A stretch of 45,074 bases of DNA from a virus (taxonomy: Duplodnaviria; Heunggongvirae; Uroviricota; Caudoviricetes), in the IMG/VR virus record IMGVR_UViG_2908567220_000008, positions 1-45,074 of that record; one strand, given 5' to 3'. The first letter of the stretch is position 1; each line of letters starts with the position of its first letter. Below, in pieces: positions 44,751 to 45,074 of the stretch. The position numbers and the translations under genes were made by a program. The notes beneath the pieces are model-generated. The model was not told where the DNA came from, did not search any database, and saw only the letters and a list, made by a program, of their open reading frames with translations.

Positions 44751-44821
44751 AACAATAGTTTGCTACTGACGCAGGGATTGATAGCCACAACCAGCATTGA
44801 TCTGCCACCAACTTAAAATTA

Positions 44822-44837
44822 CTGTATATAAAAACAG
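44822..44837 (+). promoter_or_regulatory. LexA box (SOS operator) overlapping a putative promoter
   Basis: CTGTATATAAAAACAG fits CTGT-N8-ACAG; with flanks TACTGTATATAAAAACAGTG, near the 20-bp consensus. Candidate -35 TTGATC at 44797 with -10 overlapping the box; 19 nt upstream of the ATG at 44856. Confidence 0.65.
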
Positions 44838-44855
44838 TGTTTATGGGGGAAGATC

Positions 44856-45074
44856 ATGCTTCGACAGTCAGACATCACTGCGGCTTTCCGCGAGTCGGTT
44901 TTGCGCAGTTCCAAGGGGTTCCAGTACCTTCACACCAGAGACTTCGTTACCGCGCTGCGCCGGCGCGGCATCCATTTTTCCGAGGTGGAGGCGTATGACC
45001 TCGGGTTTACCAGTACGGCTTATTCCGGCGGCGATGGCGCGGATGGCATCCTGATCCTGGAAGAATTCGCGTGA
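44856..45074 (+). CDS. Small protein (72 aa) under apparent LexA control; C-terminus shares a motif with the Gly-rich fibre
   Basis: RBS ggggga then ATG; ends SGGDGADGILILEEFA, paralleling GKGANGLVYLEEFS at the end of 39465-40250. Stop codon is the last three bases of the window. Confidence 0.5.
   Translation: MLRQSDITAAFRESVLRSSKGFQYLHTRDFVTALRRRGIHFSEVEAYDLGFTSTAYSGGDGADGILILEEFA

Follow-up and report, generated by a model that had tools for sequence, protein, structure and literature searches.

Is the small open reading frame (ORF) at the right end of this prophage, which is preceded by a near-consensus LexA box and ends like the prophage's own glycine-rich fibre protein, a gene switched on by DNA damage, or does it have another origin? 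The window, by which we mean the whole 45,074-nucleotide stretch that was analysed, very probably holds here a deletion scar, namely, what is left of a decayed SOS accessory module at the right end of an Escherichia coli lambdoid prophage inserted at yecD-aspS. The features of the right end are as follows.

42966-44223: complete IS3 element of 1,258 bp, with ends TGATC...GATCA and orfA/orfB at 43022-44193
44775-44819, plus strand: promoter-upstream region, judged homologous to that of the E. coli K-12 umuDC promoter, with two TTGAT(A/C) motifs
44797-44802, plus strand: putative -35 hexamer TTGATC, exactly 17 nt 5' of the LexA box
44820-44839, plus strand: LexA (SOS) box TACTGTATATAAAAACAGTG, whose left arm TACTGT (44820-44825) is the putative -10 hexamer
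44845-44852, plus strand: Shine-Dalgarno-like GGGGGAAG, read from the sequence, ending 3 nt 5' of the ATG
44856-45074, plus strand: 72-codon ORF with an ATG start; its stop is the last triplet of the window, next to attR
44856-44993, plus strand: 5' remnant, codons 1 to 46 of a 79-aa PHROG 3893 gene (gene 1)
44991-44993, plus strand: deletion junction, a GCG (Ala) codon common to both parent genes, in a GGTGG-rich stretch
44994-45074, plus strand: 3' remnant, the last 26 codons and stop of a 343-aa Gly_rich_2 (fibre-like) gene (gene 3)

The ORF product is made of two pieces with different relatives. Residues 1 to 46 align with positions 1 to 46 of the 79-position PHROG 3893 profile (E 3.8e-17) and are identical, 46 of 46, to the gene 1 product of E. 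coli ST540; the proteins of relatives cover positions 1 to 79. A full-length profile match is absent from the window, and the conserved C-terminal half of the family (AN-W-I ... F-D-T ... ENRLW-NMG) is replaced in the ORF. Residues 47 to 72 are, without exception, the final 26 residues of a 343-aa glycine-rich protein of E. coli cS100a, and at the nucleotide level, the 84 nt of window positions 44991 to 45074 agree throughout (100%) with the 3' end of that gene. Gene 1 reads GAGGTGGAGGCG|AAC and the glycine-rich gene GGTGGTGGCGCG|TAT across the junction, and the window reads GAGGTGGAGGCG|TAT. In a five-way alignment, the window tracks gene 1 to ...CCGAGGTGGAGGCG and then continues with TATGACCTCGGG..., as after ...GGTGGTGGCGCG in the glycine-rich gene. 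The product ends in GGDGADGILILEEFA (...ILILEEFA), and the Gly_rich_2 protein encoded at 39465-40250 ends in GKGANGLVYLEEFS, so that the resemblance between the two C termini described in the earlier note is borne out (ILILEEFA, with a shared LEEF(A/S)). The suggestion in that note that the ORF is a fibre-related fragment under SOS control was nearly right for the last 26 codons; the ORF as a whole is a deletion fusion and not a designed small gene. Searches of NCBIfam, PADLOC, and Pfam gave nothing significant for either the 72-aa or the 79-aa protein. Pfam gave no hit for the 72-aa product, so the Gly_rich_2 domain (PF21722) of about 226 positions was not found in it.

The same box controls three genes in the intact relatives, among them E. 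coli cS100a, E. coli ST540, and Klebsiella phage RothC. The best match, ST540 (L001), has the box, the 79-aa gene, an overlapping 105-aa gene (gene 2; TAATG overlap), and then, after 11 nt, the 343-aa glycine-rich gene. By blastn, window positions 44223 to 44993 correspond to L001 5524-6294 at 99.4% identity, reaching codon 46 of gene 1, and window positions 44984 to 45072 correspond to L001 7664-7754, the last glycine-rich codons, about 1.37 kb further on. A megablast search with positions 44700 to 45074 against 5,426 complete E. coli genomes matched 72 of them, and every match ended at query base 294 (44993); the two halves of the ORF were contiguous in 0 of the 5,426. A related prophage with an intact module occupies the same site in E. 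coli cS100a (L017), where yecD and aspS follow immediately. The glycine-rich gene there (1553-2584, 343 aa) terminates in ...AYDLGFTSTAYSGGDGADGILILEEFA, and the segment absent from the window corresponds to cS100a 1123-2503, or 1,381 bp.

These coordinates are consistent with illegitimate recombination at the common GCG codon. The resulting 1,381-bp deletion would have removed codons 47 to 79 of gene 1, the whole of gene 2, and codons 1 to 317 of gene 3, and the remainders, joined in frame, would form the 72-codon ORF. Genes 1 and 3 lie in different frames, and the join restores an open frame by coincidence. Instead of a simple deletion inside a single prophage, the event could also have been recombination between two, in that the nearest match of the 5' half of the ORF is in ST540 (99%) and that of the 3' tail in cS100a (100%), and no single sequenced parent carries both closest halves. 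The possibility that the short form is ancestral was rejected, because both halves are pieces of widespread complete genes.

The exact 72-aa sequence was found on at least 15 contigs, all from E. coli and from independent assemblies (NCBI, ENA, and Logan). The carriers have the same yecD-aspS flank as cS100a. In two of them (L011 and L012), the upstream 702/716-aa and 267-aa genes are intact and there is no IS3 insertion. The occurrence of the 72-aa form in independent assemblies, and in some carriers without IS3, indicates that the deletion is genuine and predates the IS3 insertion. On the contig L010, no plus-strand terminator-like site was seen between the ORF stop and the convergent yecD (6220-6444, just past the end of the window), so SOS-driven transcripts might leave the prophage and run antisense to yecD.

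The deletion is not the only damage at this end of the prophage. The IS3 element has no target-site duplication and replaces 1,108 bp found in E. coli ST540. It truncates a 702-aa TolB-like/PHROG 19652 tail-region gene, whose remnant lies at 41616-42968, and a 267-aa PHROG 19357 gene, whose remnant lies at 44211-44750. Two other regions of the window were noted in passing. Directly after the fibre gene, on the minus strand at 40229-41607, are a gene for an O-antigen-type acetyltransferase (Acyl_transf_3, PHROG 3333) and a 95-aa gene (PHROG 20491), in the place where relatives have a 65-aa gene; this insert is probably a serotype-converting moron. Next to cI, on the minus strand at 7394-9033, where lambdoid phages carry exclusion genes, there are genes for a HipA-like kinase (PF20613) and a DUF3037 protein, a pair that gave weak matches to the PADLOC candidate system PDC-M66A/B (E 0.002 and 6e-7).

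The LexA box departs from the 20-nt consensus TACTG(TA)5CAGTA at a single position. In a scan tolerating up to 3 mismatches over the 20-mer, it was the single site in the window, reported on both strands, with 0.01 expected in dinucleotide shuffles, and the CTGT-N8-ACAG core likewise occurs once in the 45 kb, at 44820-44839. The near-consensus box that had been read upstream of the ORF is thus present, at 16 nt from the ATG instead of the 19 nt given previously. A plausible promoter had also been read as overlapping the box; TTGATC, 17 nt, and TACTGT, its putative elements, form a conserved layout and the only properly spaced hexamer pair, but a generic sigma-70 scan called no consensus promoter here at its thresholds, and TACTGT is a weak -10 hexamer. 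In relatives, GGAGGG occupies the equivalent Shine-Dalgarno place.

Comparison with the upstream region of umuD in E. coli K-12 was informative. The K-12 umuDC operator is TACTGTATATAAAAACAGTA, and the window box is identical to it at 19 of 20 positions (TACTGTATATAAAAACAGT-). The 45 nt 5' of the box are identical, in register, at 30 of 45 positions (window, GGATTGATAGCCACAACCAGCATTGATCTGCC...; K-12, ATATTGATAGCCTGAATCAGTATTGATCTGCT...), and both TTGAT(A/C) motifs, as well as the -35 TTGATC with its 17-nt spacing, are shared. When the K-12 45-mer was slid along the window, the next best placement gave 24 of 45, and the mean was 11.2. By this measure, the window promoter and operator share ancestry with their umuDC counterparts, in keeping with the UmuD'-like gene that stands second in the intact module. 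The module differs from umuDC in that it has no umuC, in that the unrelated 79-aa ORF stands between the operator and the UmuD'-like gene, and in that its UmuD'-like protein starts at the match to Gly25 and has Tyr for Ser60; the gene for that protein is deleted in the window.

SOS control of the promoter of 44856-45074 is very likely, as predicted from its sequence. Bound LexA would cover the -10 hexamer, since that hexamer is the left arm of the box, and would block it. DNA damage would lead to RecA-stimulated LexA cleavage and so release transcription independently of CI. LexA binds few sites as tightly as the umuDC operator, and for an operator of this type, release would be expected late, only in strong or prolonged SOS. 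The SOS control proposed in the earlier note is therefore well supported, if by inference, by the umuDC-homologous operator and by a box that precedes homologues down to about 30% identity; LexA should still be able to act on the promoter and operator of the window.

A LexA box lies 5' of gene 1 homologues in nine other loci, whose proteins show 30 to 97% identity. A canonical box is found 11 to 36 nt 5' of the start codon in RothC, ST16-OXA48phi5.2, HK225, Eeyore, Midgardsormr38, phiES15, and Pantoea sp. NSTU24, among which the proteins of Erwinia phage Midgardsormr38, Cronobacter phage phiES15, and the Pantoea strain show only 38%, 32%, and 36% identity, respectively, to the gene 1 product. 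TTGATC stands at an equal distance from the box in RothC, ST16-OXA48phi5.2, HK225, and phiES15 as well. Among 80 IMG/VR loci, TACTG-N10-CAG occurs no more than 90 nt upstream in 68, and near variants of it in a further 3; TTGATC lies exactly 17 nt 5' of the box in 56 of the 68 box-bearing loci. The gene with the MGF(P/S)SPA start follows gene 1 immediately in 63 of 67 loci, and the third, glycine-rich gene is present in 8 of 57.

There are exceptions to this arrangement. In 8 of the 80 IMG/VR relatives (L021, L032, L033, L041, L043, L049, L067, and L097), a GC-rich palindromic sequence, GCCCGGTGCG..CGCACGCCGGG..., replaces the LexA box and promoter over about 90 nt 5' of gene 1, ending just before the ribosome-binding site; gene 1 can thus lose SOS control. 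One further locus, L065, keeps the right half of the box only. In the coliphages HK225 (L006 2662-3300) and Eeyore (L007 2638-3560), the LexA-box region that precedes the gene 1 homologue also has a dinI homologue transcribed divergently from it, and in HK225, gene 1 is followed by a DNA invertase gene, without a UmuD'-like gene. Pantoea sp. NSTU24 (L005 3946-4234) has a solitary, 36%-identical gene 1 homologue with its own LexA box, TACTGTTTATATATACAGCT, flanked by a BLUF/EAL-type gene and a chemoreceptor gene, with no UmuD'-like neighbour and no obvious prophage.

Gene 1 is a real gene under purifying selection. Its protein family comprises 373 clusters at 90% identity, mostly of 79 aa, and 70 clusters at 50% identity. 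Over 70 distinct alleles, dN/dS was 0.12 overall and 0.087 for codons 47 to 79, the segment deleted in the window. PHROG 3893 has no assigned function. The 79-aa protein is predicted to adopt a winged helix fold. A profile search of PDB sequences with the gene 1 family gave no hit, Foldseek comparison of the predicted structure with the PDB gave only matches with E above 0.1, a BFVD structure search returned the HK225 homologue only, and hhalign found no match between the family profile and the LexA N-terminal domain. Within the gene 1 coding sequence, at 44950-44968, there is a GC-rich hairpin with a T-run that resembles a terminator; it was rejected as a functional terminator given its position in the gene and the loss of the T-run in RothC, and it is probably incidental. 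Elsewhere in the family, in P0160, P0175, P0177, and P0133, the gene 1 N terminus is fused independently either to the UmuD'-like gene, with different breakpoints (as in P0160 and P0175), or to the C-terminal helix-turn-helix of a DNA invertase (as in P0133). The latter fusion explains stray database names such as "putative invertase/recombinase," and the differently placed, independent fusions P0160, P0175, and P0133 indicate that the locus often decays and is prone to rearrangement.

The 105-aa product of gene 2 aligned by BLASTP with UmuD residues 25 to 63 (E 1e-10; GFPSPA.DYVEQR). The alignment begins at UmuD Gly25, the residue after the cleavage site, so that the protein would be already "processed," and Tyr replaces Ser60. 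Gene 2 thus appears to encode a catalytically dead, preprocessed UmuD'/HumD-like protein. It matched PHROG 3469, "UmuD-like," with an E of 1.5e-45, and it matched the NCBIfam HumD family (NF051876) end to end (E 1e-12), with 48 bits, below the 120-bit cut-off. Like P1 HumD and other phage UmuD'-like proteins (NF051876, PHROG 3469/811), it is without the N-terminal arm that is removed by cleavage. Unlike P1 HumD, it is below the NCBIfam cut-off, is shorter, always follows the 79-aa gene, and is absent from the window, where no remnant of a UmuD'/HumD-like gene, with its S24-like fold from the GFPSPA motif, was found elsewhere (best tblastn E 0.3).

Gene 3, present in a minority of phages, encodes a Gly_rich_2 (PF21722) tail-fibre-like protein with a Pfam match through to its end. 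The window fibre (261 aa) also belongs to Gly_rich_2 (E 1.4e-9), with a match that stops no more than four residues short of its C terminus, and in both full-length glycine-rich proteins, the PF21722 match reaches positions 223 to 224 of 226. The common LEEF(A/S) ending is simply how the Gly_rich_2 domain terminates. BLASTP between the two proteins was not significant (E 0.17; tblastn E 0.88), and the donor glycine-rich gene and the window fibre gene look like distant paralogues, with a kinship seen via shared Pfam and PHROG profiles only. The ORF is therefore like Gly_rich_2 proteins in that its last 26 residues are the end of one, and unlike them in having no Pfam hit of its own and a donor only distantly paralogous to the window fibre.

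The parent 79-aa protein might be a LexA-controlled antirepressor of the type of 186 Tum, N15 AntC, or Gifsy GfoA/GfhA, in which case the window would contain a broken induction switch. Parallels are known in Tum, an antirepressor fused to DinI, in AntC, and in GfoA/GfhA of the Gifsy dinI-antirepressor operons, all of them small proteins that are under LexA control and linked to a DinI homologue (PMC3121763). The module is comparable in that a small phage protein is encoded under a LexA box, far from the immunity region of temperate phages, and is paired with a homologue of an SOS protein that binds the RecA filament, whether UmuD' or, in HK225 and Eeyore, the product of the divergent dinI. 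We nevertheless consider this reading unlikely. The prophage CI (9343-10104) is a classical cleavable repressor, with a helix-turn-helix and Peptidase_S24 domain (E 9e-18), an Ala-Gly site, a GDSM serine, and a VKRLQK lysine, and with these self-cleavage features, induction needs no extra factor; RothC has an annotated CI, too. No sequence similarity to the antirepressor operons was detectable in a tblastn search of 50,697 phage records with the 79-aa protein (E of at most 1), which returned, among the matches listed (40 of 55 hit records), only PHROG 3893-type genes and neither 186 nor N15. The family also occurs outside prophages, as in the Pantoea homologue that stands alone, with its own LexA box, between nonphage chromosomal genes, and the predicted winged helix is no known antirepressor fold. 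The Gifsy-1 STM14_3218-3220 region was found to be unrelated.

A role for the products of genes 1 and 2 in adjusting the SOS response or translesion synthesis is more likely, by analogy with P1. P1 HumD acts with UmuC, and a functional description of HumD was reportedly given by McLenigan et al. in 1999. A more specific proposal, that the intact module is an undescribed SOS device, a "precleaved," split LexA/UmuD-like pair with a captured umuDC operator that tunes host SOS, translesion synthesis, or prophage induction, we regard as quite improbable. The predicted winged helix and the catalytically dead S24 domain would here be encoded by separate, translationally coupled genes, with the split falling exactly at the cleavage place of LexA, CI, and UmuD. 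We found no description of this particular 79-aa/UmuD'-like module in the literature; temperate phages are already known to carry LexA-regulated accessory genes and UmuD'-like genes.

That the 72-codon ORF is itself a functional SOS-induced small protein, a new fusion gene encoding, for example, a dominant-negative fragment of the winged-helix-like protein or a small effector, is very improbable. Neither the recognition helix nor the wing of the predicted winged helix is left in the ORF, and the most constrained segment of its parent is gone as well; in the structural model, it keeps helix 1, strand 1, helix 2, and four residues of helix 3, followed by the tail of an unrelated domain. With only profile positions 1 to 46 of 79 kept, and with helix 3, the wing, and the most constrained third gone, the SOS-induced small effector of the earlier note is not upheld. 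Judged by this truncation, the product is most likely nonfunctional and unstable. Promoter, operator, ribosome-binding site, and open frame are all intact, and the in-frame fusion is unchanged on at least 15 contigs, so that some use is conceivable, but the carriers are all of one prophage lineage at one attachment site, so the identity among them reflects common descent and not selection. The 1-in-3 chance of an in-frame outcome, the independent deletion fusions in the same family (P0160, P0175, and P0133), and the neighbouring tail genes also broken, by IS3, argue in the same direction. The fragment might interfere with intact copies in co-resident prophages.

There is next to no chance that box and ORF are chance features or an assembly artefact: the bare CTGT-N8-ACAG core would be expected 0.46 times in 45 kb, but the full 20-mer at up to 3 mismatches would be expected only 0.01 times, the flanking 45 nt resemble the umuDC promoter, the box is kept across distant homologues, and the chimera is present in independent NCBI, ENA, and Logan assemblies.

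The apparent "SOS-controlled fibre-like mini-gene" is thus explained as a scar in a decaying prophage. It matters little for the window itself and serves as a warning that the 72-aa ORF should not be annotated as a gene. The main interest lies in the intact module. The 79-aa, winged-helix-like protein encoded at its head is conserved, is under strong constraint, and falls outside the Pfam, NCBIfam, and PADLOC families. Its gene appears, from its upstream sequences, to belong to the LexA regulon and is usually coupled to a gene for a HumD-like UmuD' mimic in many phages of Klebsiella, Escherichia, Enterobacter, Erwinia, and Cronobacter. The intact module would be a tractable target for studying how prophages may manipulate SOS mutagenesis or induction.
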